A stretch of DNA of 64,000 nucleotides, taken from the NCBI GenBank assembly GCA_040954595.2, contig CM082587.2, forward strand, positions 9,677,403-9,741,402, written 5' to 3'. A model generated the notes under the pieces. It had not been told where the DNA came from and ran no database searches. It saw only the letters and a program-made list of their open reading frames with translations. Source of the stretch: Balanoglossus misakiensis. Lineage: Eukaryota; Animalia; Hemichordata. Both the position numbers and the translations under genes were made by a program. Below, one piece after another: positions 1 to 62,228 of the stretch. Each line of letters begins with the position of its first letter. The first letter of the stretch is position 1.

Positions 1-3000
1 TAAGCTTTCAGCCTACCAATGTAGCTATTGTATTTTCCACTTTTTGTAAGTGAAGTCTGACTGTCGCCTGTCTTAGGTCACCACTTCATAAGCGGTCTTA
101 CCCGTCATTGGCACAAACAGTCTCAGGAAGAAAGCTTTCAGCCTACCAATGTAGCTATTGTATTTTTCACTTTTTGTAAGTGAAGCCTGACTGTCGCCTG
201 TCTCAGGTCACCACTTCATAAGCGGTCTTACCCGTCATTGGCACAAACAGTCTCAGGAAGTAAGCTTTCAGCCTACCAAACAGTCTCTGGAAGTAAGCTT
301 TCAGCCTACCAATGTAGCTATTGTATTTTCCACTTTTTGTAAGTGAAGCCTGACTGTCGCCTGTCTTAGGTCACCACTTCATAAGCGGTCTTACCCGTCA
401 TTGGCACAAACAGTCTCAGGAAGTAAGCTTTCAGCCTACCAATGTAGCTATAGAATTTTCCACTTTTTGTAAGTGAAGCCTGACTGTCGCCTGTCTTAGG
501 TCACCACTTCATAAGCGGTCTTACCCGTCATTGGCACAAACAGTCTCAGGATTTAAGCTTTCAGCCTACCAATGTAGCTATTGTATTTTCCACTTTTTGT
601 AAGTGAAGCCTGACTGTCGCCTGTCTTAGGTCACCACTTCATAAGCGGTCTTACCCGTCATTGGCACAAACAGTCTCAGGAAGTAAGCTTTCAGCCTACC
701 AATGTAGCTATTGTATTTTCCTCTTTTTGTAAGTGAAGGCTGACTGTCGCCTGTCTTAGGTCACCACTTCATAAGCGGTCTTACCCGTCATTGGCACAAA
801 CAGTCTCAGGAAGTAAGCTTTCAGCCTACCAATGTAGCTATTATATTTTCCACTTTTTGTTAGTGAAGCCTGACTGTCGCCTGTCTTAGGTCATCACTTC
901 GTAAGCGGTCTTACATGTCATTGGCACAAACAGTCTCAGGAAGTAAGCTTTCAGCCTACCAATGTAGCTATTGTATTTTCCACTTTTTGTAAGTGAAGCC
1001 TGACTGTCGCCTGTCTTAGGTCACCACTTCATAAGCGGTCTTACCCGTCATTGGCACAAACAGTCTCAGGAAGTAAGTTTTCAGCCTACCAATGTAGCTA
1101 TTATATTTTCCACTTTTTGTAAGTGAAGCCTGACTGTCGCCTTTCTTAGGTCACCACTTCATAAGCGGTCTTACCCGTCATTGGCACAAACAGTCTCAGG
1201 AAGTAAGCTTTCAGCCTACCAATGAAGCTATTGTATTTTCCACTTTTTGTAAGTGAAGCCTGACTGTCGCCTGTCTTAGGTCACCACTTCATAAGCGGTC
1301 TTACCCGTCATTGGCACAAACAGTCTCAGGAAGTAAGCTTTCAGCCTACCAATGTAGCTATTGTATTTTCCACTTTTTGTAAGTGAAGCCTGACTGTCGC
1401 CTGTCTTAGGTCACCACTTCATAAGCGGTCTTACCCGTCATTGGCACAAACAGTCTCAGGAAGTAAGCTTTCAGCCTACCAATGTAGCTATTGTATTTTC
1501 CACTTTTTGTAAGTGAAGCCTGACTGTCGCCTCTCTTAGGTCACCACTTCATAAGCGGTCTTACCCGTCATTGGCACGAACAGTCTCAGGAAGTAAGCTT
1601 TCAGCCTACCAAACAGTTTCTGGAAGTAAGCTTTCAGCCTACCAATGTAGCTATTATATTTTCCACTTTTTGTAAGTGAAGCCTGACTGTCGCCTGTCTT
1701 AGGTCATCACTTCGTAAGCGGTCTTACCTGTCATTGGCACAAACAGTCTCAGGAAGTAAGCTTTCAGCCTACCAATGTAGCTATTGTATTTTCCACTTTT
1801 TGTAAGTGAAGCCTGACTGTCGCCTGTCTTAGGTCACCACTTCATAAGCGGCCTTACCCGTCATTGGCACAAACAGTCTCAGGAAGTAAGCTTTCAGCCT
1901 ACCAATGTAGCTATTGTATTTTCCACTTTTTGTAAGTGAAGCCTGACTGTCGCCTCTCTTAGGTCACCACTTCATAAGCGGTCTTACCCGTCATTGGCAC
2001 GAACAGTCTCAGGAAGTAAGCTTTCAGCCTACCAAACAGTCTCAGGAAGTAAACTTTCAGCCTACCAAACAGTCTCTGGAAGTAAGCTTTCAGCCTACCA
2101 ATGTAGCTATTGTATTTTCCACTTTTTGTAAGTGAAGCCTGACTGTCGCCTGTCTTAGGTCACCACTTCATAAGCGGTCTTACCCGTCATTGGCACAAAC
2201 AGTCTCAGGAAGTAAGCTTTCAGCCTACCAATGTAGCTATAGAATTTTCCACTTTTTGTAAGTGAAGCCTGACTGTCGCCTGTCTTAGGTCACCACTTCA
2301 TAAGCGGTCTTACCCGTCATTGGCACAAACAGTCTCAGGATTTAAGCTTTCAGCCTACCAATGTAGCTATTGTATTTTCCACTTTTTGTAAGTGAAGCCT
2401 GACTGTCGCCTGTCTTAGGTCACCACTTCATAAGCGGTCTTACCCGTCATTGGCACAAACAGTCTCAGGAAGTAAGCTTTCAGCCTACCAATGTAGCTAT
2501 TATATTTTCCACTTTTTGTAAGTGAAGCCTGACTGTCGCCTGTCTTAGGTCATCACTTCGTAAGCGGTCTTACCCGTCATTGGCACAAACAGTCTCAGGA
2601 AGAAAGCTTTCAGCCTACCAATGTAGCTATAGAATTTTCCACTTTTTGTAAGTGAAGCCTGACTGTCGCCTGTCTTAGGTCACCACTTCATAAGCGGTCT
2701 TACCCGTCATTGGCACAAACAGTCTCAGGATTTAAGCTTTCAGCCTACCAATGTAGCTATTGTATTTTCCACTTTTTGTAAGTGAAGCCTGACTGTCGCC
2801 TGTCTTAGGTCACCACTTCATAAGTGGTCTTACCCGTCATTGGCACAAACAGTCTCAGGAAGTAAGCTTTCAGCCTACCAATGTAGCTATTATATTTTCC
2901 ACTTTTTGTAAGTGAAGCCTGACTGTCGCCTGTCTTAGGTCATCACTTCGTAAGCGGTCTTACCTGTCATTGGCACAAACAGTCTCAGGAAGTAAGCTTT

Positions 3001-10497: not shown

Positions 10498-10499
10498 CC

Positions 10500-12642: not shown

Positions 12643-12676
12643 CAAGGTTGTGACATCTTGGTGACTTTCGTAAGGG
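12643..12676 (-). repeat. Right TIR of EnSpm/CACTA element
   Basis: CAAGGTTGTGACATCTTGGTGACTTTCGTAAGGG followed by the AG TSD. Confidence 0.95.
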
Positions 12677-36938: not shown

Positions 36939-37190
36939 GTAGCTCATACCCAACTTGACAGACTCCTTTGTTTACACTTCGGAGCCAAAAAGGTTGGTGC
37001 GGGGGGGGGGGGGGGGGGGGTGTCTACATTGATGCACGTGGGGATATGAGAAACAAAATACTTTTTTTACAAGAAAAATCTATGCCGTCTCTCTGCCTGT
37101 ATGATTCTACTACAAGCTCTTATAGAAACATGATTATGAAATAAGTTTGCAAGACTGTATGGAAGAATATCCTGAACTCAACATCAAAGT

Positions 37191-38013: not shown

Positions 38014-38179
38014 CCTACTGTTGCTGAAAAATACTTGTATATGAAAGTTGAAACAGTGATAGTTGCACATGAGGTATCTGATATGGCATTAACATAAACA
38101 TAACAAAATAAAGTTTTGAATGTTCCTTGCAATCTGCAATTGCATGAAAATATTCTCTGTACTGTTAATAAAGTATAAT

Positions 38180-38751
38180 CAGGGGTACCTAAGAAATTGT
38201 AGTTCAGAGAAAGAAATCGGTCGTCTTGCTCCCCAACCCGGTCGGTCAGAACTATTTTCCCGTCATTCGGAACCCAAAATCTGTAGTTCAGAACTCAAGT
38301 CCCGTAATTCAGACCAGAAACGCGGCGTTCAGAAAGTGGTTTCACGCAATTTCCACCATTGAGGGCGCAAACAAGATGGCCGACCACAGTGGAAAGATCG
38401 GCGATGGTGAGTATTTTCTGTGATTTCTATATATTTATGACGATTTTTGTCACAAAATATATCGCGTACAGTGTAACTGACCAAGATGCTTAGCTTTGTA
38501 AAGTTTCACTGTTCAGTATTTCGAAATTACAGAGAAATCCGCGTCCCAGCTCTTTTACCGGGCAATCTGAAGTACACTGTGTACAAGTACACGCCAGTGT
38601 GTTTATACCATGCGATCCCTGGCAATACCACAGGCAGCTCTTCCTCCTTGTTTGTAGTATGTATGTATGTATGTATGTGTGTATGTATGTATCTAGTGTG
38701 TATGTATGTCTGTGTGTGTGTATGTATGTATGTGTTTGTTTACAAATATGG
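38180..38751 (+). repeat. Left long TIR (contains the putative promoter, exon 1 and a (TATG)n/(TG)n microsatellite)
   Basis: Reverse complement of 55871-56535 apart from a few substitutions, small indels and an 86-bp insertion in the right copy. Confidence 0.93.
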
Positions 38752-39786
38752 GCATGTTTGTTCGTTTATTTGCTTGTAAACAGGTTAAGGTTAGGATGTG
38801 TTAGGGTTGGGGTGCGCATGAGTACCCCATATTGCAAATGTTTACTTTTAGAACATGTATTGTCGCCTCGCTCTTCAAGCAAATTTTAAACCTTCATGTC
38901 CAACTCCATTAAAATTGAGTAATTTTCTCCATGATTTTTTTACTTAAATGTTGTACTTGTTTTTTTCTCCATAGCAATGCAAATTCTGCACAATATGGAA
39001 TGTGGTGAAGATGTCAGTGTCAGTTTAAAAAGCCCTAATTCAACAAGCTCTAGTGAGGGAAATGTTGGTACAGGATCGGATGCAGTTGCACCTGGTGAGG
39101 GGACCAAGACGGATAGAGTTGGTGTTGGTGATGAAGTTCAGGGCAAGAAAAAGAAAGTGGCAAAGCACATTAAGTGTGATACATGTGATAAAGTCTTTCA
39201 ATCAAAAACTGGATGGAGAAAACACTACAGGCAACACACTAAAGAGTACCCTTATAAGTGTTTCTGTGGAAAAGGCTTTTCTGAAAGACTGAGACTAAGA
39301 GAGCATTCTTGTAAACACACCAACAGGGGCATAAAAAGGTGTAATGTTTGTGGATTTGAGGCAAAAACTTACAAAGGGATGAAATCGCACACCGCATCCC
39401 ACAGCTCTGAAACTCATCCGTGTGGTAAATGCTCAAAAACTTTCAAGTCAAAGACGGCACTAACACAGCATATGAAAGGATGCCACGAAACCAACTACAC
39501 CTGCTCTTGTGGAAAAGTCTTTGGATTGAAAGCCAGGTACAACGCTTATCTGAAAGTCCATTCCGAGAAGAAAGAGTACCAGTGTTCAGCTTGCAGTTAC
39601 CAATCTTCCAGGAAAGCAGACTTCAAAAAACACATGTTGCATAAACATACTGATGCGACTCCTTTCATATGCAGTATGTGTGGGCATGGGTTTAAAACCA
39701 GAGATAAACTCATGAAAAATGAATCCCGCAAAAAACCCTGTGGTGAAACAGAACAATCATTCATGTGGGATGATATTGACTGTTAG
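38376..39786 (+). CDS. Transposon-borne C2H2 zinc-finger protein (7 fingers), 2 exons: 38376-38406 and 38975-39786
   Basis: Exon 1 ATGGCCGACCACAGTGGAAAGATCGGCGATG|gtgagt (phase 1) joins ttttttctccatag|CA ATG CAA in frame with ORF 38977-39786. Fingers e.g. CDTCDKVFQSKTGWRKHYRQH, linkers HTKEYPY and HSEKKEY. Fingers 5 and 7 lack a His ligand. Confidence 0.85.
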
Positions 39787-40194
39787 AAAACCAGGACATA
39801 TTTGTGCATTTTTTGGCCCCATTACAGGCATGCTTTCATGTACTTTTAGGTATCATTCACTATATGCACATCTATACGTATTGGTTTATGTGTGTATGCA
39901 TGTTCCTTCCACCAGTATTCCATGTCTACTGTCATCGGTAATAATTTACAACTTTTATTACATACTGCTGTGAATTTCACTTACAGTTACTATTTTCTTA
40001 TTTGCTACATCATTTTATTGTTTAGTACAAACAATCTCTGCAGATAACAAAACAGAACAGGCTTATCAGCATGTTTTGATAGGCTGTTTGTTCATGTTAA
40101 TCAAGATATTTCAAAGATATATTGTTTGCTTATTTTATTCAAAAACACAAATTTATATGAATTGAGATGATAAGAGCACAGAGTCTGCAGTCAA

Positions 40195-40784
40195 CATGTT
40201 ATTTAATATTTTATCAGTTGTTGTTTGATTGTTAAAAAATAATCCTCTGCCAGTTGGGTTATTATGCCACCTTCACCCCTAGGCCCATGTCTGTCCACTA
40301 TCAGTGTTTATATCTAAAGAAACAGCCCCTATAGTACCTGTGAAAGTGTTCCTGCATATTAGCTAAAGCCGACTGACCAGTTTTTCCAAGAGATCACCAT
40401 TCACATGTGATTAACCCCTACACAAACATTTAGAGGTTATAAACGGCTAGCGAGGGTATTTGGTTGTGTATATAAGACCTCTTAGGTGAAAATTAGCATA
40501 TTTAGCATATTTCACCCAAATATGCTAAGTTTCACCTGAGAGGTCTTATACCCACAACCAAATACCCTCGCTAGCCGTTTATAACCTCTAAATGTTTGTG
40601 TAGGGGTTAATCACATGTGAATGGTGATCTCTTGGAAAAACTGGTCATACTGGCTATTTCTTCAGATATATACACTGATAATGGACAGACATAGGTCTAG
40701 GAGTAAAGGTAGCCTAGTACCCCACTAGCAGGGGATTTGTTCCATTAAAATCAAAGAATATCTGATAAAATATTAGATAACATG
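40195..40784. repeat. ~590-bp inverted repeat/hairpin between the two convergent genes
   Basis: Near-perfect inner arms 40374-40503 and 40518-40647; more diverged outer arms 40195-40328 and 40652-40784. Confidence 0.9.
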
Positions 40785-42980
40785 CTATCTGATCCCTGTG
40801 GTAGGCGACAAGAATGAGTAATTCTTAATTGGCCTGCAAATGTTTATCGAGTTGATATTGCTTTTTATACATTGCAATAAAATGTTATTAGTTTTCGTTA
40901 GTCCAAGTATTTTCCTAAATGTTCTTATTACTACATGTAAATGTGTATCCATATGTGCAAAGTCCATTGTTTATCAACTGCATTTTAGCCAGATGATATA
41001 GAGACCAAACTGCTGAATATTTCAACACATTGATTCATTAAACTATAATACACACATTTTGCAGTATTTCGTCTACTACCAGTGTCTGTTCCACAGTTGG
41101 TCAGCTGTGAGCACCAATGGGTGTAAATTACAATTCAACATGAAATGGTACCTGAAATTTTTGTGTCCTTCAATGTATTAAAGGAAAAATATTTTCAGAT
41201 GCAACTGTATCACCCATTGATTCCAATTCCTCTTCCCCCCCCATTATCACTCCCACTTCCTCCGATCCTCACCCCATCCATATTTTTTGTGTGGATGCAG
41301 CCTTTTTCCACTTGTACATACATATATTCTGTTTTAATGACAACTAAACTGTAGACAAATTAATGCAAGTCCAGACTCAAATTCAGTACACACGTGCTGT
41401 GTTGATAAGCTAAATGCTTGGTATTTCATCATGGGTTTGAACATGAAAAAGCAGTTGATACACAAAGTAGGTACATGTATACACTTAAAATTGTTGACCC
41501 CCAAAATGTACCTATAAAGGGCAAATTCAGTACATTGTGTACTGCAAGCTAAACACAGCATTTCAACATTATTTTGGGAGATGAACATGCACGATGTTAC
41601 AAATGTAACTTTGAGCTTTTTCCGAGTCTAACGAGGGCATTGACCTTTCCCTCATTTACTTTGTGATACGATCTAACTCCTGTAACTCCCTTAGCTGGCT
41701 CATGCAGGTTAGAAAGTCCCTTGACCTTCCATCTGGCTGTCCTTCTTCTGTTAAGATTATCAAAGGGATGGTTCTGCATGTGGGAATAAAGAAAACAGAG
41801 ACTGTTTTTCTTGCCATATAAATTAGCAACTAGATATAAAAGTAAAAATGTGAACTCAATGATATTCAACAGAGCACTATTGCAAAATTGCTCAAATACA
41901 TTTGTTACACATGTACAAACAGATACTAGTAATCCGTAAGCTCCTTCTGATACACCTACCACCTGTGCTGTAAAAATTTGATGACAAAAACAAAGCAACA
42001 AACTTACATGAAGTCTTTCTCTGAAATGAACGTTGGTGGGGGAATTGGTTGACTTGAGGGTTCTGAGTCAAGCTCTAATTCCTGTTGTGGATAGATTGCT
42101 GCTGATGAAAGCCTCACCGGAAAACCTCTGTAAGTCCAAAACAATGAGCAATGACAATATGTTGTGAAAATATTTAGAAATGAACATTAATGTTAAAAAA
42201 AGTGTTTATATTGCAGGCCTTGGCCATATTGTTCTTCTGTAAATGATACCACACATTATTGTCAACCTTTTTCAACAATTTGATAGTCAAAAATATATAA
42301 GAACAAAATTATAAATCGAGGATCCATTATTCTTTAATAGTCTTATATGTCTCTTTCCAAAAAAAGTCAATACCCTACACTTTTCTGTACATGAAAGAAT
42401 TATGCTTATCACATGCTATGTACCTGCAAGGGTCATACCGTACAACCATCTCTCCACATATCTTCGCAAAACTGGTTTCCAAATCGATGCAGTTTGGGAC
42501 ACCATTTCGTGAACCTGACAATGATGCCAAACTTCCAAAGAGACTTTCACAAGGTTGACTGGTCACTGCACGTTGATTGTAGGTTCTTCGTTTTACAAGC
42601 CCACATAGTATCAGCTCTGCATCAATATTTGCAATGGTTGATTCCCATAATGCCCTTGGATATCCATGAATAAACATCCCAGGAGGTGGAAAGCTGTACA
42701 GATCAACCATTGATAACAGTGTCTCCCTGTATCTGTGCATGAAAAATGATAAAGGGATAAAACAAAACATATAGGAAATAACATCTTTCATGGGTTAACA
42801 TTAATACGTGTGATAAAAGTGTCTTAAAAGTAAAAGGAAAAAAAATGTGTTTCAAGTAAACCAGTAAACAAAACAAAACAAACAAATCAACAGACTAACT
42901 AACAAGAGCTCAGTTAAATCACATGGTATTGGTGACAATAAAATTATGAAATTAATTAAAATTAACACCAACCTTATTTT

Positions 42981-43622
42981 TGTAACGGCCTTGTTGATCC
43001 ATTGAATTTGTATACATGTATATCTGTATGTATGTTATACCTGTATCTTATAGTAATTAGTTATTCAATTATTCATATGACGTAATAGTACTTACCTTCA
43101 ATTGGTTGATCTTAATTATATGCAAACCACCTGGAAGTTTCATTTGACCAATGAACACAAGCTAATCTGGCACTATGATGTAATTGCTGATATAAAAGGA
43201 CATGGTGCATAAAATTGGTCAGTTCACCTCTGTAGCCAGACCGGCCACACACGTTGGAACTGACATGTATTTGTTCCATTTCAGGTTAGTTTCCTTGTAC
43301 CTTACCTGTTGCTTGAAGCTTTGTATTTTGGTGCATTCTACCGACTCATTTCAGCACAAGTAATTGGTGTCGTTAACTTGCGTCAATTTTCCAATTGTAT
43401 GTCTATATTTTTCACTTGAATGAATTTTGGTGTATTCTGTTGGAGGTGAACTCCCATACATGTGTGTAATTTAGCAGTTCACCTCTGTAGCCAGACCGGC
43501 CACACACGTTGGAACTGACATGTATTTGTTCCATTTCAGTTATTAAATGTAAGGCCTATGTCTTTGTTACCCGTAACCTGTTTGGTGTGAATATGTTGGA
43601 ATGAACGGCGACAACCGTGACA
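42981..43622 (+). repeat. 5' LTR (642 bp)
   Basis: TGTAACGG...CCGTGACA; no difference seen by eye from 50397-51038. Confidence 0.97.
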
Positions 43623-43624
43623 AA

Positions 43625-43643
43625 TGGCGTAGTCGGCAGGATT
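43625..43643 (+). promoter_or_regulatory. Primer-binding site, tRNA-Ser
   Basis: TGGCGTAGTCGGCAGGATT is complementary to the conserved animal tRNA-Ser 3' end AATCCTGCCGACTACG-CCA; it starts 2 nt after the LTR. Confidence 0.9.
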
Positions 43644-44695
43644 TGGCAATTCCTACGCAAGTTCTTGTTTCGGGACGGAGAGGATGATACTGACAAGTGC
43701 CATGTTTTAACTGGTCAGAAGTGTCTGGACAACGGACAACGCCCAACCAGGTGTGTCTTTCGCTGAGCTGGACGTCCTTGGGGAGCCAACCGGACTGCAG
43801 ACAGACGGGAGCCAGGTCCAAGCGTCAACGGCGAGGAAAATTCTCTGCAGAGTGCCAAGTGGTGAAGTCGCTGAACTGTTACCGGCCGGAACTGTTTAGT
43901 GTGAAGTGTTCATCGCGGTATACAAAGTATTGTGTGTCCAGAACTTGACAGTGTTATTCCGTGCGAACTATAGACAGTGCGCATAAATTCCGTCCGTGGC
44001 GCATAGTTTCCATCTGTGATAACTTCGGACTTGAACTTGTGGACTGGGTATTTTATTGCAAACGAACTTTCTGGTTATTCGCCGTAGAACCTGGTGTAAC
44101 GTAAATTTTTCTTAGAAATTTCAATATTGTCTATATAATGCAATGTGGTCAAAGTAGTTTTGACTTTGATTTAATTGTTGAAGTGGGCTCCATGTGGATA
44201 TAAACCCCTGTTTTGTTGCCTTTAGCCTGCTTTAAACGAAAAAAAATATATATATAAATTTTATTTTCTTTCAACAGTATATTTTGGTTAAGTGCTGAAG
44301 TATAATTTTCTTTGTAAATTTCAGTTCATTATTTTCCAAACGACGTGGAAAAAAAAATTGTCAGCACTTGTTGAAAAAAAAATATTAAGTTATAAGTTAA
44401 ATATTGTATAGTGACTTGAGTTAGTTTATTATTGTATTAGTTATTTAGTTGTTTCATTATTATTGAGACTGTCCATGAATGGTCGTATTCATCCAAATCA
44501 TACATTAGTCTCTATAGAACCTTTGGCAGTGTCTGTAAGCTATTCTACGCTTATTTCATTCCCTGTTAACGTATGTGCTATGCCAGTAGATACTGATATT
44601 ATTGTTAAGATTTTCCAGTGAAATAGCTTGCATTGCATCGTATTTAACGACACGTCAGAGTCCTCCCAAATTGCCTCTCATTTTATGGAAAAAAA

Positions 44696-46120
44696 ATGGC
44701 TGTGTCCAAAATATCAATTCAAGAGCGAAGCATTTATGTGCAACACTTGCCTTTTGAATGTACAAAGAAACATTTTAGAGAAGTTATCGAGTTACAGCTT
44801 GGTTTGGCCCAGGTTGATCAAATTTATATTTCTGATAAAGATTCCGCTTTTGTCATATTTGAGAATATAGAATCAGCCACAGCCGCTCTGCCAGTAATAC
44901 ATAAAAGCACTTTTGAAGAAAGCAAATTACGGGCAAGTCGTGTGACCACAGCCCGAGGGTTGGAACTGTGGCATTTAATTGAGGAAACCGAACAAAGTAC
45001 TGGCCTAGATTACAATGAAACCAGTGATCCCAAGACATCCAAACCCAAAGCAGATGTACAGGAAATTATTAACATGTTGAGTTTACTGTCTGAAGCAGAT
45101 AGGAAAGCGGTTGCACAGGCCATATCACCTGCTCCACTGAAACCAATCGTATCAACCCCTATGCCACAGCCGATTCCATTTCCAGCATTTCCAGTACCAA
45201 CTTCAGTTGCAGATTCTTCACCATTTATTATGTCTTCACCTGCCCAAGCAGCTGCTGCACAGCCAGCCACAGCCACTACTGCTTTTCACTCGGTGGAATT
45301 CCCAAGAATAGTCGTCTTCTCTGGCAAAGGTGATGTCACTTATGAAATGTGGCGATATGAAGTTCGAGCACTACAGAGGGAGAATGTGTTTCCGGAGACC
45401 ATAATTATGCAGGCTGTTCGGAAATCCCTACGAGCGTCCGCTGCTGAAGTCCTACTACATATGGGAGAAGACATCACAGTGTCCCGATTGATGGCGAAGA
45501 TGGACATGGTCTTTGGGAAAGTATTGCCACCGGAAGCAGTTTTGGAAAAATTCTATACAGCACGACAAACGAAGACAGAAAAGGTAGCAGAATGGGCCTG
45601 TCGCATCGAAGGACTTTTGGATGAACTCAGATCAGGTCAGTCCATCTCTAGTAATTCAGAAGAAACCATGCTTCGAACCAAATTCTTTTCTGGCCTGTCA
45701 GATGAGCACATTAAGAATGCAATCAGACACCGATATGATACAGGAGAAGATTATTCAGGATTGTTGCTAGCCGCAAGAAAGTTTGAAGTAAATAGGGAGA
45801 CCACTACCAGGGTTCACCAAGCAACTGTTGCTGACAAGACGATGATAACCAAATTGGAGGAACTTACCAAAGGTCTGAAGAACTTAGCTGAGAAGGTTGC
45901 TGAACTAGAGAAGCGAACTTCAACATCATCAACTCCAGAGTCTACTTTTCGCCGACATGTCAACAATGAAAATGGCCGGGATCGGCGTGGCAACGATGGA
46001 ACTCGCCAACCCAAACAAGTTTTCCCAGGCAACTGCTTCAAGTGTGGTGAACATGGACACAAAAAGACAGACTGTCCTTTAAATGGGGAGCGACCAGGCA
46101 TCCGGAGGGACATGCGCTAG
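44696..46120 (+). CDS. gag: Gag (PNMA/Ma-like capsid) with N-terminal RRM-like domain and CCHC zinc knuckle
   Basis: RNP2/RNP1-like SIYVQHLP...SAFVIFEN; capsid FSGKGDVTYEMWRYEV...VRKSLRASAAEVL; CFKCGEHGHKKTDC. Confidence 0.93.
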   Translation: MAVSKISIQERSIYVQHLPFECTKKHFREVIELQLGLAQVDQIYISDKDSAFVIFENIESATAALPVIHKSTFEESKLRASRVTTARGLELWHLIEETEQSTGLDYNETSDPKTSKPKADVQEIINMLSLLSEADRKAVAQAISPAPLKPIVSTPMPQPIPFPAFPVPTSVADSSPFIMSSPAQAAAAQPATATTAFHSVEFPRIVVFSGKGDVTYEMWRYEVRALQRENVFPETIIMQAVRKSLRASAAEVLLHMGEDITVSRLMAKMDMVFGKVLPPEAVLEKFYTARQTKTEKVAEWACRIEGLLDELRSGQSISSNSEETMLRTKFFSGLSDEHIKNAIRHRYDTGEDYSGLLLAARKFEVNRETTTRVHQATVADKTMITKLEELTKGLKNLAEKVAELEKRTSTSSTPESTFRRHVNNENGRDRRGNDGTRQPKQVFPGNCFKCGEHGHKKTDCPLNGERPGIRRDMR

Positions 46121-49100
46121 GTCGGAACGGTAACAGTCCCTCTAATGTTATTGATTCGTTAATAGGCCACGCCAATGAAACTGAGATTGTGTTGGAAGGA
46201 TCCTCGTGTATTGCGCTGATAGACACCGGGTCCATGGTATCTACTGTTGCTGACACTTTTAACAGAGAGAAGCTACAGAAACCAATTCATGACCTGAACA
46301 ACTTGGTGAAGGTAGAAGGGGCTAGTGGTACAGAAGTTCCTTACCTTGGTTATATTGAAGTTGAAGTGAAATTCCCAGATAGCCATGGACAAGAGATGTC
46401 TAAAGATATATTATTGCTTGTTGTTGAAGACACGGAATATAATCAGATGGTTCCAGTTGTGATAGGCACAAATGTTCTCCAACATTTTGTGGATGAAGAT
46501 ACACAGTACAATACAGACCTATCCTCAGTATGGAGACTAGCATACCAAGCGACTATCCACCGGCAGAGGGCCGAAGGTAGGACATTTACAGTTACCACTA
46601 CTAAACCCACAACCATTGGACCATACGAACGCACAGTCATCCATGGATTTTGCAGAGTGGACCTAAGAAATTGTCAATCAGTAGTTGTGGTGGAACCAGA
46701 AAATGACAGACTTTTACCTGGTGGTTTACTTGTTACTCCAGCCGTGTTGAAGTTAGAGCCTCGTGGTAATTCGTGTCGAATCCCAGTAATGGTGACCAAC
46801 TATGGAGCACGTGCTGTCACAGTTCCCCCTAAAAGCACCCTATGTAACATGAACTTAGCATCTAATGTCTCACAGCCTTTAGATCCATATGGAGATGATA
46901 TTGATACAAACTCAGATGGGACCACCTCACCAAAAGTACCCGATTGGCTGATAAAAGACCTGGGATTACAAGAGGCAGATACAGAATTAACAGAAATCCA
47001 GAAAGACCAAGCCTTGGCTACCATTGGTAAATGGCAAACCGTGTTCTCTACAGGTGAGAGAGATTTGGGACACACAACATTGGTAACACATTCGATAAAG
47101 TTAACGGATGAAACCCCCTTTAAAGATAAATACCGTCGAATCCCTATGGGTATGTACGAAGAATTGCAACAGTACCTGCAAGATATGCTACAGAGTGGTG
47201 TGATTAGAGAATCAAACAGCCCGTGGTCCTCAAATGTTGTATGTGTCAGAAAACCTGATGGGAAGCTGAGGGTGTGTATTGATTATAGACGTCTCAACGC
47301 CAAAACCATTAAAGACGCTTACGCATTACCCCGGGTATTGGATACGCTTGATAACCTTAGTAACGCCGAGTGGTTTTCATCGCTTGATCTACGGTCTGGA
47401 TATTACCAAGTAGAGATGGCGGAAGACGACAAAGCGAAGACAGCTTTCACGGTGGGAAACTTCGGCTTATTTGAATTCAACCGTATGTCTATGGGTCTGA
47501 CCAACGCACCTGCAACTTTCCAGCGTCTCATGGAGAAGTGTTTTGGAGAATTGGCGTTCAGAGAATGTTGTGTGTATTTAGATGACATCATAGTATTTTC
47601 GAAGACTTTTGAAGACCACCTCAATAGATTGGAGCGGGTATTCCAGCGGCTGGCATCACATGGATTAAAGTTGAAGGCAACGAAATGTGTTTTATTCCAG
47701 AAGAAGGTGAAATATCTTGGACACGTGGTATCAGCCGACGGAATTACAACGGACCCAGACAAGGTAGCAGCTCTGAAGGAATGGCCAATACCCACTACTG
47801 TAACAGAACTGAGAAGATTTCTTGGATTTGCAGGGTATTACAGGAGATTTATCCAAAGCTACAGTAATATTGCCAAGCCACTTAACGACTTGCTGTGTGG
47901 ACGTCAGTCAAGGAATAAGGCGGGAAAATTTGAAAAACTCCAGTGGGGACAACAGGAACAACAAGCTTTCGACACTCTGAGGAAGAGCCTAATGTCGTCA
48001 CCAATACTAGCCTTTGCTGACTACTCACTTCCATTTGAAATACATACTGATGCAAGTTCCACAGGTCTGGGAGCAGTGCTGTATCAACGCCAGAAAGGTA
48101 TTCTCAGAGTAATTGCCTATGCAAGTAGAGGACTCACCAAGTCTGAAAGTAATTATCCAGCTCATAAATTAGAATTTTTGGCACTGAAATGGGCCGTCAC
48201 CAAGAAGTTCAACGACTACCTGTATGGAAGCAAATTCACTGTGTTTACAGACAACAACCCTTTGACGTATGTGTTAACTTCTGCGAAACTGGATGCGGTG
48301 GGACACAGATGGTTGTCAGACTTGTCATTGTACGACTTCTCTATTGTTTACCGGAGTGGTAAGAAGAATATAGAGGCTGACGCTTTGTCTAGGATTCCAT
48401 GGAATAGAGAGAATCCAGAGACGGAAACCAATCTGGGAGCCGATGTAGTCCAGGCGCTTTGTCGAGCAACAGAAGGTCCATACGTAACTTCATTCGGAAT
48501 GGTAGCAGATGAGGACAGACCTGCAGTAGTTCAAGGTGGGGATGATGTGTTCTGGAAGACGGAGCAGTCCAAAGATTCAATAATACGGTATGTGACTGAT
48601 CAGCTTGAAAAGGACCACAAACCACTTATGAGAGATCATACAGGAGATATCAGACTACTTATACGAGATTGGAAACGCCTTGTTCTGAAGAATGGAGTCC
48701 TATACAGGAAATGCTTCATCGATGATATACAATATTTGCAACTTGTCTTACCAGTACACCATAGAAAAGATGTCCTGGAGGAACTACATGATAAACTTGG
48801 ACACTTTGGCCAAGATAAAACCCTGGATCTGGTACGACGAAGATTCTACTGGCCTAGGATGTCGATGGATGTTCAAAAGAAAGTGGAACATTGTTTACCA
48901 TGCATTCGCAGGAAAAGTTCAACTTCCTTACCCAGAACTCCCTTGGTTAATATTCACACATCACAACCGATGGAAATGGTGTGCATCGACTTTCTCCATA
49001 TACCAACACCAGATCAAGGATATAGCAACATATTAGTGATGACGGACCATTTCACTCGATACGCTATAGCAGTACCTACAAAGAACCAGTCTGCCAAAAC

Positions 49101-50337
49101 AACTGCCAAAGCATTGTTTGAACATTTGATTTTGCATTATGGGTTCCCAGGACGATTACACAGTGACCAGGGGCGAAACTTTGAGTCGTCTACAATTCAG
49201 GAACTTTGCCGAATAGCTAATATTAAGAAGTCCAGGACCACTCCATACCACCCCCAGGGAAATGGAATGTGCGAACGATTTAATAAGACGTTATTACAGA
49301 TGCTTGGAACTATGAATGAAGACAACAAAACAAGATGGGCTTCACATGTCAATACGATGGTTAATGCCTATAATTCTACAAAGCATGAAAGCACCGGATA
49401 TTCACCTTTCTTTTTGATGTTTGGTCGTGAACCAAGACTGCCTATAGATGTATCTGGACATGCAGACCAGACCAACCTAGAATATGGTGGAACAGTTTCA
49501 GATTATGTGACGAAACTTGCCGAACGGTTGGATTACGCCTATAAAGTAGCAACGGAACGGTCTGTTAAGTCTGGTGAACGGCAGAAGAAGTCATATGATA
49601 GAAAAGTGAAGGTGGCCATAATACAACCTGGTGATACTGTGTTGGTGAAGAATACAGGACCTAAAGACAATTACAAATTGGCAGACCAATGGGAAAAGGA
49701 TCCATATACAGTGATTTCACAGCCCATAGAAGACATTCCAGTATACGTGGTACAAAAACAAGTTAAGGGTGGAAGGAAGCGGACACTACATAGAAATTTG
49801 CTACTCCCAATACCAATAATTCCGGACGAACTGGATGACGATGTTAACACCAAGATGACGCAGCGTGATGTTAAGCAGAGTGTACCGGGTGTTATCAACG
49901 ATGCTACCCAGGATGCAGTGGACGAAGAGGATGACGGCATTGGTAAATTGCAATTCGTGTCAACTATCAACTTGCCAACAGAACACAATGCTCTTAATCC
50001 TACTGCTGCAGAATTCATCCCATCCAGAAGAGAAAGTTCCCTGATGGACAACCCCACAGGTATGGTTAATCCGGATGGACCTTCTCAAATACTTACCTCA
50101 GATTTCTCGAATCATATTTTGCAAAGTACGGATGGTTGGTCATCGAGCGATCCAGATGGTATCACTCCTGCTACAACCAACATCAGTCCTGACTCCAGTA
50201 GTAGTACTCAACCTGAACCACGCTATCCTACACGACAGAGACGACCTCCAGATAGATATAGTCCCGAACAATGGAATCTAAAACAGTTTGCTCATACGAC
50301 TTTATCTTCTATACCATTTATTAATTGCCACTATTAA
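46078..50337 (+). CDS. pol: Pol polyprotein (protease, RT, RNase H, integrase), probably expressed by -1 frameshift
   Basis: LIDTGS, YLDDIIVFS, TDASSTGLGAVL, H-H-C-C zinc finger, D-D-E integrase (HSDQGRNFES). The pol frame is open from the slippery heptamer T TTA AAT at 46078-46084. Confidence 0.96.
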   Translation, partial: FKWGATRHPEGHALGRNGNSPSNVIDSLIGHANETEIVLEGSSCIALIDTGSMVSTVADTFNREKLQKPIHDLNNLVKVEGASGTEVPYLGYIEVEVKFPDSHGQEMSKDILLLVVEDTEYNQMVPVVIGTNVLQHFVDEDTQYNTDLSSVWRLAYQATIHRQRAEGRTFTVTTTKPTTIGPYERTVIHGFCRVDLRNCQSVVVVEPENDRLLPGGLLVTPAVLKLEPRGNSCRIPVMVTNYGARAVTVPPKSTLCNMNLASNVSQPLDPYGDDIDTNSDGTTSPKVPDWLIKDLGLQEADTELTEIQKDQALATIGKWQTVFSTGERDLGHTTLVTHSIKLTDETPFKDKYRRIPMGMYEELQQYLQDMLQSGVIRESNSPWSSNVVCVRKPDGKLRVCIDYRRLNAKTIKDAYALPRVLDTLDNLSNAEWFSSLDLRSGYYQVEMAEDDKAKTAFTVGNFGLFEFNRMSMGLTNAPATFQRLMEKCFGELAFRECCVYLDDIIVFSKTFEDHLNRLERVFQRLASHGLKLKATKCVLFQKKVKYLGHVVSADGITTDPDKVAALKEWPIPTTVTELRRFLGFAGYYRRFIQSYSNIAKPLNDLLCGRQSRNKAGKFEKLQWGQQEQQAFDTLRKSLMSSPILAFADYSLPFEIHTDASSTGLGAVLYQRQKGILRVIAYASRGLTKSESNYPAHKLEFLALKWAVTKKFNDYLYGSKFTVFTDNNPLTYVLTSAKLDAVGHRWLSDLSLYDFSIVYRSGKKNIEADALSRIPWNRENPETETNLGADVVQALCRATEGPYVTSFGMVADEDRPAVVQGGDDVFWKTEQSKDSIIRYVTDQLEKDHKPLMRDHTGDIRLLIRDWKRLVLKNGVLYRKCFIDDIQYLQLVLPVHHRKDVLEELHDKLGHFGQDKTLDLVRRRFYWPRMSMDVQKKVEHCLPCIRRKSSTSLPRTPLVNIHTSQPMEMVCIDFLHIPTPDQGYSNILVMTDHFTRYAIAVPTKNQSAKTTAKALFEHLILHYGFPGRLHSDQGRNFESSTIQELCRIANIKKSRTTPYHPQGNGMCERFNKTLLQMLGTMNEDNKTRWASHVNTMVNAYNSTKHESTGYSPFFLMFGREPRLPIDVSGHADQTNLEYGGTVSDYVTKLAERLDYAYKVATERSVKSGERQKKSYDRKVKVAIIQPGDTVLVKNTGPKDNYKLADQWEKDPYTVISQPIEDIPVYVVQKQVKGGRKRTLHRNLLLPIPIIPDELDDDVNTKMTQRDVKQSVPGVINDATQDAVDEEDDGIGKLQFVSTINLPTEHNALNPTAAEFIPSRRESSLMDNPTGMVNPDGPSQILTSDFSNHILQSTDGWSSSDPDGITPATTNISPDSSSSTQPEPRYPTRQRRPPDRYSPEQWNLKQFAHTTLSSIPFINCHY

Positions 50338-50396
50338 TCAAATATCTTTAACTTACTTTAAATGACGAGGACGCCATTTCTCCTCGCAGGGGTGCG

Positions 50397-51038
50397 TGTA
50401 ACGGCCTTGTTGATCCATTGAATTTGTATACATGTATATCTGTATGTATGTTATACCTGTATCTTATAGTAATTAGTTATTCAATTATTCATATGACGTA
50501 ATAGTACTTACCTTCAATTGGTTGATCTTAATTATATGCAAACCACCTGGAAGTTTCATTTGACCAATGAACACAAGCTAATCTGGCACTATGATGTAAT
50601 TGCTGATATAAAAGGACATGGTGCATAAAATTGGTCAGTTCACCTCTGTAGCCAGACCGGCCACACACGTTGGAACTGACATGTATTTGTTCCATTTCAG
50701 GTTAGTTTCCTTGTACCTTACCTGTTGCTTGAAGCTTTGTATTTTGGTGCATTCTACCGACTCATTTCAGCACAAGTAATTGGTGTCGTTAACTTGCGTC
50801 AATTTTCCAATTGTATGTCTATATTTTTCACTTGAATGAATTTTGGTGTATTCTGTTGGAGGTGAACTCCCATACATGTGTGTAATTTAGCAGTTCACCT
50901 CTGTAGCCAGACCGGCCACACACGTTGGAACTGACATGTATTTGTTCCATTTCAGTTATTAAATGTAAGGCCTATGTCTTTGTTACCCGTAACCTGTTTG
51001 GTGTGAATATGTTGGAATGAACGGCGACAACCGTGACA
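50397..51038 (+). repeat. 3' LTR (642 bp)
   Basis: Direct repeat of 42981-43622, preceded by a short purine-rich tract GCAGGGGTGCG. Confidence 0.97.
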
Positions 51039-54000
51039 TTTTCATTGTAAACCTGTCAACTGCAGATATTCCAGGTTCATCCATTGACAGAAACCATTCT
51101 CTCACAAGTTTACAATGGCTGGCAGAGGATGTGTACCCTTTCTTTTCCAACTCATCCTGGACTTCTTCAGAAAACATAATGAGTGCAAAATCAGTACACT
51201 GCATATCCAGACTTTCTTCAACCATACCAAGTTTCAGCTGTGTAGTGTTGTCTGCTGCTACTTCTAAGAAGTGCCTCTTTTTTGCTTGCCCAAGGTCCCT
51301 CTTGCACAAAGCAGATCTATGCCTGGTCAACAAGTGATGAGGGTCTATTTTCCTAACTAAAAGTTCATCCCGTTTTGTGGAATATTCTGGTATGTAGAAC
51401 CAATTTATCCCAGAGTGTTCATTTAATTCAGGAATATCCATGTTGTGCTTGATTTTGGACTCACGTTTCCACTTTTCCACTCTTTCTTGAAATTTCCAAT
51501 TAGCATAAGAAACAGAAAGAGCGTTCTTTGCGTAGCCTTTGCTATTCAAAATATTCAGGCACAAAACTGACAGTTTATGGGGTGACTTTGAACTTCTTGA
51601 AGTGCTGACTTCACCAGGGATATGGAGAACATTCTTCAAGCACCTGAGAAGAGCTTCCTTGCGACCAGCCATTGTGACATTTTGGTGTTTATGTTCCTTC
51701 AGGTATTTTAATATTACTTTCAATTCCAAAACCGTAAGCCTGGAAAGACTTTCGCAGCTTTGCAGTTGTTGTCCTATATCATTGATACCCTTATTATTCC
51801 ATTTCGTTGTTTGATCTTTCAGCAATGTTAAAATATTGTGAATATCATTTTCATGTAGTACAGAGTTAATCTCATCAGAATGCAAATCCAAGTCAATTTC
51901 TGTCGATGTAACTCTTTCTTCTCTTTCATCTTCTGATGCATCACTGTTACTTGAACTACTGTTCCGTCCTTCATTGTTGGTGTCTTCATCTTCATCGAGA
52001 TCTATGTTAACCAAATTCCTTTCAACCACTTCTTCCTGTTGTTTTTGTTGCTGTTGATTTTCATTGTCCATTAATGTCTCATCCTCCAGTGAAATAACAC
52101 ATTCTGGAAGCTCTGCCATTAATTGCTGAACCAGCTGCCTATCAGGCTCTTCTATTTGTTGTGACACTTCTTTGTGATCATTGCTGTTTAAAAGAGCAAC
52201 TACTGTCTGTGGAACCTTGACACTTTCACGGTGACCAAGTGTAATAGTAATTACACCACCCACATTTACAGTTTTCTTGATGATATCTTCCATCTTTGCT
52301 ACTTTATTGACATTTCTTATTTCTGAGATAATTTGATTCTTTGGCATCTGACATACCTCCTTCCAGAACATCCTCTGCAATTCCATAAGAGTTAAAGGCT
52401 GTCCATCCTTGCTGGTTTGCAACAAAGGTAAACACTGGCCGTCAAAGCTCTGCACAGGACAGTGAATTCCTCTGCTATGGCAGTAATCCAGAACATCTTC
52501 TAATATACCTCTAACAACACTGGTTGGTAAACTGTAACCCCTCAGAAAATAGCAAACAGGTGTCCCATGTGTCAGTTCAGCAGACCATAATCTGTCCGTG
52601 TTGCTGGCGACAAGTGCTACAACTTCAGTAGCTTTCTTCCTTGATAATTGGTAGTGCTGCTTCATGTAGTAGATAACTTCATTCAAAATGTCACCAAGTT
52701 GTGATAATGGAAGCTCTTGCATCTTGGGAGGTGAATTTGTAACAAAGCTGTTGTGTATCTCATTTGATGTGTATGGATTAGGATTATCTTCAGATATTGT
52801 AACAATCCTGTCTTCAAATAAACATGCGTGTACTGATGTCAATTCACCAACAACTTTGCAATACTTTGGAATATTGGTTCCGACCATTTCTTTAATAGCC
52901 TTTGCTGTGGTAGAAAGCTTGCTTGGACATCTTGTCACTTCTCTACCATAAATATCATTGAGCTCCTTCTCAATGAGAGGCCAGATTTCATCATCTTTTT
53001 CTACCCTGAATGCCTTGGTTGTTTCTTCTGTCCATACACAAAATAAACACCACTGAATGTTTGGCTTACTCCTTATTTCTGATTGTACTTGTAAGTAGTA
53101 GCGTTTTGGAATGGTATCTGGTATTTTACCACTTTTTGGGCATTTACACTCCACAGCAGCTATGTCTTCATGGCTGATGTTACAATGAAGGAATCCATCC
53201 GGTGAAATAACCATGTCAACATTCCCAACTGTCAGCTTGAAAGCACCAACTTCCAACAGACAACAATTTGGAAACAGTGCAGGTAAAAACTTGGTTGCCA
53301 ATGTAGCCAATGAGCATATTTCATGCTTGGTACCCCAATCCATAGCTTCCTGAGTAGACTTGTCAGGTGGTGGCTTTTCAAATCCAAGCACTTTTTGCTG
53401 ATAATGCTCCCTTTGAGCTTTTAAGCCCGCACAGCCAACAGCATTAAATAGTGTGCTTGCAGTAGCTTTCACATCTTTACGTGCCTGAAACCATAATGAA
53501 GATCTCTGCTTGATGTATGGGAGTCCTTTGTTGATTACAGACTGGGCAAAGTTCTCAAGATGTTCTTCGCCACTACCAAGAAAGAGATCTATATCATGCA
53601 AAGCATGGTACCTGCTGCATTCTTCAATGCGAACTATTGGCAATGATACCCAATGAGCTGGGTCACTAACCAATGCAGCACAGGCTTCTGCAATACGCTC
53701 TCTGAGCTGGTCACCAATGGCATTAAGTTCTTTGAGTTCCACTATGTTTGCTGTCACTACACTTATTGGGTATTGGTACTTTGGTGATCCAGCGTCAACT
53801 GCTGCACGAGCTCTTAGCTTTTCCAATGCGTAACTCTTCTTCTCAAGTGTGTTTCTTGTTTCAGACTTCTTCACTGAAAGTGTCGTCAATACATTCCGAA
53901 GCCTTTCCAATGTTCTGCTTGTATCAATGTTATACGAGCATGATCCTGTATCAGTGCACACCTGCTTCTTGATGGATTTCACATACTGTACTTCTTCTAA

Positions 54001-55870
54001 ATGAACTTGTTTTTTTACTTCTGGTGACACACTACCAATTTCATTCTCTCTGCCAAGGAGATTTATGTCCCCTTTATCACCTTTCACACCAGGTGAAACC
54101 TTCTTTCCATCAAGTGAAATGCAAATACTGGTATCTTGATGCGCAACTGCAAGTTTGTTGACAATGTTCACACATATCCCAGGTGGAATACTTTTCGGCC
54201 ACTCACCATTATAAGGATCAAATGATTTCAAAACATCCTCATTTGGGATTGCAAGGATAATATCTGCTTCATCTCCTGAAAAACTGCCTTTCTCTCCTTT
54301 ATTCAGTAGAACTGTCCCTGCATGCTTCCATCCAGACAGAAAACGAAGGGGAGCTCCACCAAACTTATTTATAAATGTCTTCCAGAAAATTTTACTCTTG
54401 TGACTGAATCTCATTTCTGTCAGAGAAGATGAATTAAGTGCCTTCACTGTATCCAAAAATATGTGATATGTTACACTGTCTGGTTTGAGTGATCCATTAC
54501 CAATGCACAGTAGAAGTTCTTTAAGTAAGTTTCCTTCTTCAAACTCACTCAGAATACTGAAACAAAGGTCAATCAAATTACTCATAGCAGAGTCCTGTCT
54601 GTTTGTGATATTTTCAGACTCCACACTACCTCTCCCAATCGAATCATCATCAGGCAAGTTTGAAGTTGATATGTCTTGTGAAGGACCAACACCATTTTCT
54701 CTAGCATCAGTAGTTGCAGATGATGGGTGTACACCAGACGCAACTTCTGTTTGTTCTGGCATCTTATTGTTTACATCTTCAGGTGACTGAAAACTTTTAC
54801 AGGCTGGTATACTAAGGATGGAACCACCACAGCCACACACATCACATATTTCGCACGCTATGAGTAATGAATGGTGACATGGACTCGCTGTGCTCTTATT
54901 TGGATGTTTAAGTCTGTTGGTCGTTCCACAATTTGAACAAAGTATGCCATAAACCTCATCAGAACCAATCAAAATGTCAGATATCTTGATACTAGTATGA
55001 CATGTCATACACACCAGTTCATCATGACTTGTATCCTCATCAAAGGGAGCTGTCCGTTCCTCGGGAATCACTGCAATTTCTTTTGGTGACACTGGATAAA
55101 TACATCTACTTCGATACTTCACAGGTGTACTATGACACAATGGTTTTGATACCTCCTCCTCCTCCTCTTCATGGTTAAAATCTATATAAAAAATGTATGC
55201 AATTGTCAAAGCAAAATATAACAAATCAATCCTGCGGATTCCAACAGGTCACTTTAAAATTTTTCAGTTTTCTACAACATCATAAACTGTACATGATAGA
55301 ATGGTGATAGTACACCATGGACACTCAAAGAAATTGTATTTTCTTCCTGTGTCTGCTATAGGAGGAAATAACTCATTTCCCACTCAAAACTACCCAAAGT
55401 TAACCCTTTCACCACCATGGTTCAGTCCAAGCCCATTGTTTTCTATGGTAAGGTTGAACCACTATTAAAGGGAAGTGGGGGTGAAAGGCTTAAATAACCG
55501 CAGTATGATATCTTTGCATTTACACTTTACAAGTAACTCTTTTAAACTTACCACTGTATGTGTCAGTCCTTTTTCTCCTTTTATGTCTGTCTAATGATAA
55601 AAAGAGTTTTGATTTCCGTTTTCTACATGGCCTGTTTTCTGGTGTTTCTACATTAAAAAAGTAAATGATGTAATTATAAAACTTCAGAAAACATTCAAAA
55701 TTGATTTTAAAACAAAAAAATATATTCTACCAAAAAGGAAAGTTTGGGGCTAAATCGTACAGTATAACAATAATGAAAGAAAAAAAATGTTGCCGGTTTC
55801 AATGTGAGTTGAATTGGTAGAAAAATGCAAATGAACCGATTTTACTTATTTATTCAACAAGCAAACTTAA

Positions 55871-56535
55871 CCATATTTGTAAACAAACAAACAAACAAAC
55901 AAACAAACACACACACATACATACATACACACACACACACATACATACATACATACTACAAACAAGGAGGAAGAGCTGCCTGTGGTATTGCTGCAGTTTG
56001 CAGCCCCTCCATCTCCCCTGGGCGATTTTTGGTTTTCGCCCAGGGGAGATGGAGGGGCTGCAGACTGCAGCAACCTGTGGTATTGCCAGGGATCGCATGG
56101 TATAAACACACTGGCGTGTACTTGTACTATATACACAGTGTACTTCGGATTGCCCGGTAAAAGAGCTGGGACGCGGATTTCTCTGTAATTTCGAAACACT
56201 GAACAGTGAAACTTTACAAAGCTAAGCATCTTGGTCAGTTACACTGTACGCGATATATTTTGTGACAAAAATCGTCATAAATATATAGAAATCACAGAAA
56301 ATACTCACCATCGCCGATCTTTCCACTTTGGTCGGCCATCTTGTTTGCGCCCTCAATGGTGGAAATTGCGTGAAACCACTTTCTGAACGCCGCGTTTCTG
56401 GTCTGAATTACGGGACTTGAGTTCTGGACTACAGATTTTGGGTTCCGAATGACGGGAAAATAGTTCTGACCGACCGGGTTGGGGAGCAAGACGACCGATT
56501 TCTTTCTCTGAACTACAATTTCTTAGGTACCCCTG
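55871..56535 (-). repeat. Right long TIR (contains exon 1 of the transposase gene)
   Basis: Inverted copy of 38180-38751; the ATG lies 196 nt from the terminus in both TIRs (38376 and 56339). Confidence 0.93.
55988..56073. mobile_element. 86-bp palindromic mini-insertion (micro-MITE) in the right TIR
   Basis: ~38-bp arms TTGCTGCAGTTTGCAGCCCCTCCATCTCCCCTGGGCGA / TCGCCCAGGGGAGATGGAGGGGCTGCAGACTGCAGCAA, flanked by a CCTGTGGTA duplication (55979-55987 and 56074-56082). Absent from the left TIR, which has a single copy of the target. Confidence 0.85.
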
Positions 56536-56639
56536 ATAATGTCTGCTCCTAATTCTGCAAAATGTGTCATACTAAAATGTTATCATTAGTGACACTATGA
56601 CTAATAATAAAATATCATACTCTCCCCTTATGTATTTCA

Positions 56640-61900: not shown

Positions 61901-62061
61901 AAACTTTACGCGAGTCAAGGCGCTAAAGTATGTGAGAATTACACCTTACGCGAGTCAAGGCATAAAGGTATTCATAAAAAAAAACTTTACGCGAGTCAAG
62001 GCGTTAAAGTATGTGAGAATTACACCTTATGCGAGTCAAGGCGTAAAGGTATTCATAAAAA
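61901..62061. repeat. 81-bp tandem duplication with internal TTACGCGAGTCAAGGC subrepeats
   Basis: Two copies starting at 61901 and 61982; the motif occurs 4 times. Confidence 0.85.
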
Positions 62062-62228
62062 TAGCGTCAAGGACTCTGTGGTCCCATTTGAGGATTATGC
62101 GGAAACAGTGACACACCAGAATAAAAATTACAGGTGACATTGCAAGCAGATCTGCAAGCAGCAATATCGGGCCCAAGCCAATATAGCACATAGCAACATA
62201 GCAAATATAGCTGTGAACAGCAATAAGC

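Follow-up and report, generated by a model that had tools for sequence, protein, structure and literature searches.

We analysed a 64,000-nucleotide stretch of the genome of the hemichordate Balanoglossus misakiensis (contig CM082587.2, positions 9,677,403 to 9,741,402 of the forward strand; hereafter the window) and identified a P-like DNA transposon whose transposase is predicted to carry a second nuclease inside its catalytic core. This nuclease, a YqaJ/lambda-exonuclease-like domain, is very probably a nested and separately folded unit, and D380, D936 and the Glu encoded at 42548 are predicted, with the same high confidence, to form a single active site. The initial annotation of the window had proposed that YqaJ was inserted into a P-type RNase H fold, after its first strand and before its second, rather than attached at a terminus, and this position is supported by residue conservation, by the placement of the Pfam PF21787 matches and by the superposition of two structural models. 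Residues are numbered within the stop-to-stop open reading frame (ORF) 50983-55248 on the minus strand, which is open for 1421 codons and whose amino acid 1 is at 55248. The parts of the transposase discussed below are:

51039..55181, minus strand: large exon up to the long terminal repeat (LTR) insertion (ORF, tblastn, splice sites, model)
54100..54129, minus strand: predicted RNase H strand 1 with the first catalytic Asp, D380 (model strand 105-114; codon 54111-54109)
53668..54024, minus strand: stalk, three long outgoing helices, predicted (model H140-258)
52930..53538, minus strand: YqaJ / lambda-exonuclease-like PD-(D/E)XK domain (Pfam, fold match, conserved residues)
52642..52707, minus strand: predicted return helix of the stalk (model H579-600)
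52441..52626, minus strand: strands 2-4 of the predicted RNase H fold plus a helix, with the second catalytic Asp, D936, at their end (model; codon 52443-52441)
51367..52440, minus strand: second insertion between strands 4 and 5, about 330 aa beyond P transposase (spacing, segment profiles, model)
51334..51366, minus strand: predicted strand 5 with the DxxH signature, D1302 and H1305 (conservation and model)

Motif order and the YqaJ domain

The motifs named in the initial annotation all lie in one frame, inside one predicted exon, and in the order it had given: ISLDGKK (starting at residue 377), QRSSLWFQAR (581), TAS (596-598), WGTKHE (638), SPDG (682), ECKCP (700), YYLQVQ (717), KATEVVALV (872), TPVCYF (896), SFDGQ (934), LTVLELKVIL (1171) and DPHH (1302). 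The catalytic codons are at 54111 (D380), 52443 (D936), 51345 (D1302) and 42548 (last Glu), with D380, D936 and the last Glu each at most one base from the position first assigned to it. The large exon reads, from its start, a Cys-rich N-terminus, a helix-turn-helix (HTH)-like region, strand 1, the stalk, YqaJ, strands 2-4, the second insertion, strand 5 and a helical insertion domain. This order is neither chance nor an artefact of the gene model, because a metagenome contig (L001, 27% identity) keeps the identical order together with the final Glu in one unbroken frame of 1425 aa.

The assignment of the nuclease to YqaJ was borne out by a Pfam scan, in which PF09588 matches residues 586-724 (E=1e-9, 39.3 bits for a cut-off of 22). 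The key residues are R590, E643, D684, E700, K702 and Q720. The window protein was modeled over 1134 residues (predicted local distance difference test score, pLDDT, of 82.6; C-terminal part missing), and this model aligns with lambda exonuclease 3slp with Z 15.0 and a root-mean-square deviation (rmsd) of 3.2 Å over 184 residues. Fold matches to the lambda exonuclease / YqaJ family (PDB 1avq and 3slp; mimivirus R354) reached Z 15.0 and 13.7, and the nearest atlas clusters for the domain are viral YqaJ proteins (0.95). A profile search of the PDB returned exonucleases only, P transposase not being among the matches, and a single-sequence PDB search gave no match. The domain shares with lambda exonuclease both the fold and the R, E, PD, ExK and Q residues; it differs in being embedded in a transposase, with neither the trimeric ring nor the annealase partner evident. 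Its conserved Arg aligns with lambda Arg28 (with an inferred two-residue numbering offset), reported to bind the 5'-phosphate of a free DNA end (PMC11611040), and the YqaJ domain should therefore act on ends that are already cut.

A predicted P-type fold with two insertions

To place the domain in three dimensions we relied on residues 287-1486 of P0002, the closest complete relative (60% identical), folded with 56 sequences (pLDDT 84, predicted template modelling score 0.75). The model runs through strand 1 (D1), three long helices, the PD-(D/E)XK alpha/beta domain and a return helix, then through strands 2-3, a helix, strand 4 (D2), the second insertion, strand 5 carrying DxxH, a domain of helices and finally the helix that bears the Glu. 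Its sole Foldseek match at E<=0.001 is P transposase 6p5a, on which VIA-align superposes it with Z 29.4 and an rmsd of 3.2 Å over 327 residues, the next structural matches being mimivirus R354 (Z 13.3) and RAG1 (Z 12.1). Because this alignment covers model residues 38..1198 and chain residues 189..569, the modeled parts before and after YqaJ superpose together on one P transposase chain. At its two ends, D1 lies 39 residues past the start (41 for D230) and the Glu 39 residues before the end (38 for E531), so that both fall within 1-3 residues of their P counterparts. The window's own model (1..1134) aligned with P transposase 146..473 with Z 14.6 and an rmsd of 6.1 Å over 281 residues. Pfam PF21787 matches 5 of 33 relatives (2 above cut-off), always within positions 62-134 of its 137 and always downstream of YqaJ. 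Helical-bundle matches span the outgoing and return helices, at 105-568 in the P0002 model and also in the window model, which suggests that these helices would pack as one stalk.

The spacing of the catalytic residues leads to a further feature. In P transposase, D230, D303, D339 and E531 are separated by 73, 36 and 192 aa (PMC8230255). The corresponding distances here are 556 aa from D1 to D2 and 366 aa from D2 to DxxH, with 165 aa from DxxH to Glu in P0002; the first two values, set against 73 and 36, indicate two extra insertions and not one. In 60 relatives, strand 1 and strand 2 are 433-537 aa apart. The second insertion is made of helices, an acidic low-confidence linker (~51865-52176) and a helix-loop-helix (51625-51732) that the initial annotation had labelled SAP-like. 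The helix-loop-helix is present in the model, but Pfam SAP PF02037 has no match in this stretch of the window; the best match among the relatives is that of P0008 (E=0.069), and one Lys of the region is invariant in 56/56 aligned sequences.

Conservation across the family

A HMMER search of 1.84 billion cluster representatives returned 1336 matches at E<=1e-3, including 185 clusters at E<=1e-30. The relatives analysed here are the best 150 of the 1336 matches to a query that contained YqaJ. Those with a species name come from Ptychodera flava (60-71% identity), Branchiostoma floridae, B. belcheri, Owenia fusiformis and Batillaria attramentaria, and their annotation reads 'uncharacterized', 'hypothetical' or 'YqaJ domain protein'; the family appears to be hidden from annotation because its core is split. 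Several clusters hold members at least 90% identical on different contigs, which fits what is expected of multicopy elements.

The window protein was aligned with the 73 of 151 proteins reaching at least 1000 aa (78 shorter ones were left out), and residues were counted over the sequences represented in each column. Both catalytic sets are conserved. For the transposase, D1 is found in 62/62 sequences, D2 in 71/74 and Glu in 62/64 (the Asp, Asp and Glu of the DDE set), with the Asp and His of DxxH in 71/71 and 68/70; for YqaJ, the counts are 69/72 (R), 67/70 (E), 72/74 (D), 71/74 (E) and 70/73 (K). An intact PD..ExK lies between D1 and D2 in 55 of the 60 sequences having both. When segment profiles were run on 156 proteins, YqaJ was placed between strand 1 and strands 2-4 in all 82 that have both (82/82). 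Selection was examined on the 49 of 74 sequences that have all four core residues: YqaJ, with a mean identity of 0.31, is as conserved as the core (0.30-0.34), the linker reaching 0.13, and all six YqaJ residues (R, E, D, E, K, Q) are kept in 42 of these 49 full-length members.

Four matches with strands 2-4 and no YqaJ were considered as YqaJ-less forms and rejected as truncated, because strand 2 starts within their first 86 residues. A search for shorter relatives, limited by its word index and with the new matches not domain-scanned, yielded six proteins of 156-384 aa (five named P. flava) and no whole YqaJ-less candidate. Scans of viral contigs, of low sensitivity, produced 6 and 146 pattern matches, none of them a relative. 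One group, P0113, P0115, P0128 and P0148, combines an intact DDE with a degenerate YqaJ and provides natural controls for the role of the nuclease.

The whole element and its genes

The transposase gene belongs to an element bounded by terminal inverted repeats of about 460 bp, 97.4% alike over 467 columns and starting CAGGGGTACC. Its exons were predicted from GT/AG sites, frame and tblastn with the relatives. Besides the large exon, the element comprises:

38180..56535: whole DNA transposon of 18,356 bp, or about 10.3 kb once the Gypsy insert is subtracted; its ends read 5'-CAGGGGTACC...GGTACCCCTG-3'
38180..38634, plus strand: left terminal inverted repeat, then shared microsatellite (sequence comparison)
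56074..56535, minus strand: right terminal inverted repeat (sequence comparison)
38175..38179, plus strand: left apparent 5-bp target site duplication, ATAAT (flank match)
56536..56540, plus strand: right apparent 5-bp target site duplication, ATAAT (flank match)
56309..56339, minus strand: first coding exon predicted for the transposase, encoding MADQSGKIGD, with GT donor, inside the right repeat (splice sites and frame)
55552..55647, minus strand: predicted exon 2, basic RKRKSKLFLSLDR stretch resembling the N-termini of P0002 and P0004 (relatives and splice sites)
42424..42732, minus strand: predicted exon encoding SQPCESLF, which includes the last catalytic Glu at codon 42548-42546 (74% identical to P0002 1384-1488)
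42008..42127, minus strand: predicted C-terminal exon (tblastn and splice sites)
41597..41773, minus strand: predicted last exon, junction phase with the previous exon ambiguous (tblastn and splice sites)
42981..51038, plus strand: Gypsy LTR retrotransposon inside the transposase exon (LTRs, duplication, gag/pol frames)
38376..38406, plus strand: 31-nt exon MADHSGKIGD, predicted first exon of the zinc-finger gene, in the left repeat (frame fits the acceptor at 38975)
38975..39786, plus strand: second, convergent gene, multi-C2H2 zinc-finger protein (zf-C2H2 E=4e-11, zf-H2C2_2 E=1e-12)

Among flank lengths of 2-10, only 2 and 5 match, the chance of a 5/5 match being 0.001-0.003. An alternative boundary, with ATAAT inside the element and a 2-bp GT flank, was judged less parsimonious. 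No further copy of the transposon ends was found within the window. An apparent nonsense codon at ATGTAG (55628) was dismissed, being out of frame and within an internal exon.

The same 31-nt exon lies 196 bases into each repeat and is predicted to splice in frame, from the right repeat into the transposase and from the left repeat into the C2H2 ORF. For this reason the two genes are predicted to share their first exon, and would by extension share a promoter. The Gypsy element, whose identical LTRs of 642 bp (42981-43622 and 50397-51038) are accompanied by a TTTT duplication, was inserted a few bases before the splice donor of the large exon and cuts off the last Glu from the rest. Its gag and pol frames are open, gag beginning with an RRM (E=0.001) followed by PNMA and CCHC. 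Both the insert and the transposon copy look recent, and the copy is probably non-functional because Gypsy separates the last Glu from the rest of the gene. Between the two genes of the transposon, we also observed a foldback repeat resembling a miniature inverted-repeat transposable element (MITE) at 40188-40791 (130 nt at 97%).

Comparison with known transposons

The best structural match of the transposase (Z 29.4) is to the P superfamily (Drosophila P 6p5a/6pe2, THAP9, Galileo). Both have the DDE residues, a DxxH right after strand 5, a helical insertion domain before the Glu, an HTH-like region and ends starting with CA. The first atlas leads were P-transposase clusters at 0.84, below the 0.9 reliability line. 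The element described here differs in the YqaJ domain nested on a stalk, the ~460-bp repeats, the second, zinc-finger gene and, as judged by spacing, an equivalent of D528 that is not Asp. Moreover, no THAP domain was matched in the window ORF or in any of 33/33 relatives at E<=0.05 (at most three families matched per protein), the apparent target duplication, seen in one insertion, is 5 bp rather than 8 bp, and the spacing signature of 73 and 36 aa is replaced by 556 and 366 aa. Because of these three discrepancies (THAP, 8-bp duplication, spacing), we call the element 'P-like' and not 'P'. MuDR elements, which have a transposase of a different family, also carry long terminal repeats that drive two convergent genes; here, unlike in MuDR, each gene seems to have its first coding exon within the repeats.

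The pairing of a DDE transposase with YqaJ is itself already published, for KolobokE (PMC9587614) and ISL2EU (PMC4482050). KolobokE, as described, likewise pairs a DDD/E transposase bearing C/DxxH with a lambda-exonuclease-like PD-D/ExK domain in one protein, but its exonuclease sits downstream of this transposase domain, not inside the fold; the TTAA duplication and RR..YY ends of Kolobok contrast with the ATAAT duplication and CA..TG ends found here (PMC9587614). The ISL2EU group of PHIS shares a two-gene element with terminal inverted repeats, a DDE transposase and YqaJ. According to its published description, however, its YqaJ is a separate ORF of unknown function, its transposase is a Harbinger-like THAP-HTH-DDE protein and its ends are GG, none of which fits the present element (PMC4482050). 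We did not find the internal YqaJ-in-DDE form in the literature, Repbase and Dfam being outside this search; these databases may already hold such families under P.

Possible role of the nested nuclease

We tentatively propose, at close to even confidence, that the putative YqaJ activity acts on the host DNA ends left where the element was excised, resecting them and in this way favouring homologous gap repair. The DDE site would cut and paste as in P. After excision, the tethered exonuclease would engage the free 5'-phosphate end of the flanking DNA and trim it 5' to 3', and the 3' tails would favour sister-templated gap repair over end joining, with the element being copied back at the donor site. 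Cut-and-paste would then become a net copy gain. The step from resection to homologous recombination (HR) is taken from general repair biology, and P donor breaks are reported to be repaired by HR or by non-homologous end joining (PMC7776569). The nuclease is probably an accessory activity that the cut itself does not need, and its processivity is probably limited, since the trimeric ring of lambda exonuclease cannot be provided by a transposase dimer; the presence of YqaJ in ISL2EU and KolobokE too fits a generic accessory role. We suggest, with somewhat more hesitation, that end binding, with THAP missing, may fall to the zinc-finger protein, the SAP-like module or both.

Several points weigh against these interpretations. 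The 5-bp duplication rests on a single insertion, the exons are predictions from sequence, the DDE residue match was taken from the end points of alignments of predicted models only, and the strand-1 and strand-2-4 stretches of the window match no P-element Pfam model. The 82/82 count is biased against YqaJ-less relatives, by the YqaJ-containing query and by the restriction to the best 150 of 1336 matches. Furthermore, 5 of the 49 full-length members (four of them neighbours in the core tree, one with alignment gaps) have lost YqaJ catalytic residues and keep the DDE intact, so that the putative YqaJ activity is not universal across the family. The YqaJ and core trees (FastTree) agree in part, 9 of 14 supported YqaJ splits being found in the core tree and 5 of 14 in conflict with it, and the Spearman correlation is 0.28 between YqaJ and core compared with 0.44 between two core segments; this partial agreement fits one old insertion combined with a noisy short domain and does not prove it. 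Some of these points would favour a quite different layout, in which ISLDGKK is not strand 1 and YqaJ is simply N-terminal to a core that begins at KATEVV and whose first acidic residue is E875 (conserved in 71/74), or the view that the order was created by the gene model. We consider this highly improbable: D380 is invariant (62/62) and sits in the DGKK strand, PF21787 matches downstream of YqaJ without its first 61 positions, the P superposition begins with model residue 38 on chain residue 189, ahead of D230, and a single exon holds the order here, as a single frame does in L001.

The substrate of the nested nuclease could also be the ends of the transposon itself. The nested nuclease would then cut or trim their non-transferred 5' strand and the DDE site would cut the 3' end, leaving the long 3' extension that P transposase generates on its own. 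This would be a one-chain version of the division of labour between TnsA and TnsB in Tn7. P elements make an unusual 17-nt staggered cut whose order and mechanism are described as not known (PMC7776569), the domain is inserted right after strand 1 and would be tied close to the active site, and some of the P GTP-contact residues look absent, as judged by spacing alone. The position three before the Glu, Asp in P (D528), is Leu in 49/63 and Gln in 10/63 sequences; on this basis, the equivalents of D528 and K400 appear not to be conserved and that of S409 appears to be, and the helical domain is present. End handling may therefore differ from that of P. We nevertheless regard processing of the element's own ends as unlikely, for the four-member group keeps its DDE with a degenerate YqaJ (although this group may or may not be mobile), the conserved counterpart of Arg28 points to an exonuclease dependent on a free 5'-phosphate and not to a first-cut enzyme, and helices of 25-40 residues make for a long stalk. 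Less likely still is a role in which the domain does not steer donor repair and owes its retention mainly to the binding or capping of DNA ends, or to the destruction of linear DNA that is excised or competing. The retention of the domain in the five of 49 members with degenerate catalytic residues would agree with this, as would the proposal that the KolobokD exonuclease degrades DNA intermediates (PMC9587614); against it, 42/49 members keep all six catalytic-type residues at ~30% mean identity, and degrading excised DNA offers the element no obvious benefit. Resection of the cut host ends remains our preferred role for the nested nuclease.

Other features of the window

A CACTA/EnSpm-type element (4368-12676) with 34-nt repeats starting CCCTTACG is inserted in a satellite. 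It contains a Transposase_21/DUF1258 ORF (5927-8002), a BEN-like ORF (8753-10057) and an internal 108-bp array. The satellite is a 130-bp array covering 1-4367 and 12677-32502, with 152 copies at 98% in the longer block. At 33589-36941, 39-nt inverted arms surround short ORFs in which a TCR/CXC domain (E=2e-6) and, weakly, a RING-like domain were matched, possibly a decayed transposon. A second MITE-like foldback repeat is present at 56640-57792 (306 nt at 95%), and tandem repeats of 81 bp and 238 bp occupy 61901-63934.

Significance

The insertion domains of DDE transposases are usually found between strand 5 and the last helix (PMC8230255), and it is described as relatively rare for an insertion to lie among the first three strands of the RNase H fold (PMC3985635). 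Here, a module of ~480 aa carrying a second nuclease is placed between strands 1 and 2 across a large and diverse animal family, with both catalytic sets conserved. The features added by the present analysis are the second insertion of ~330 aa, the absence of THAP and the convergent zinc-finger gene with its predicted shared first exon in the repeats. A broader view, possible and on balance doubtful, is that these proteins are an undescribed widespread lineage, maybe a separate superfamily, of single-chain transposases with two working nuclease sites, one for cut-and-paste and the other for end processing. The traits that would speak for a separate superfamily are the 5-bp duplication, the lack of THAP, perhaps the lack of a GTP cofactor and the two genes sharing a first exon. 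The single-chain form, with its natural nuclease-dead members, makes a clean system for asking whether transposons control the repair of their donor sites. If the broader view is true, the family would offer a eukaryotic enzyme of the cut-and-paste type that determines how the break it makes is repaired, and the exonucleases of ISL2EU and KolobokE, so far unexplained, would become directly testable in one protein.

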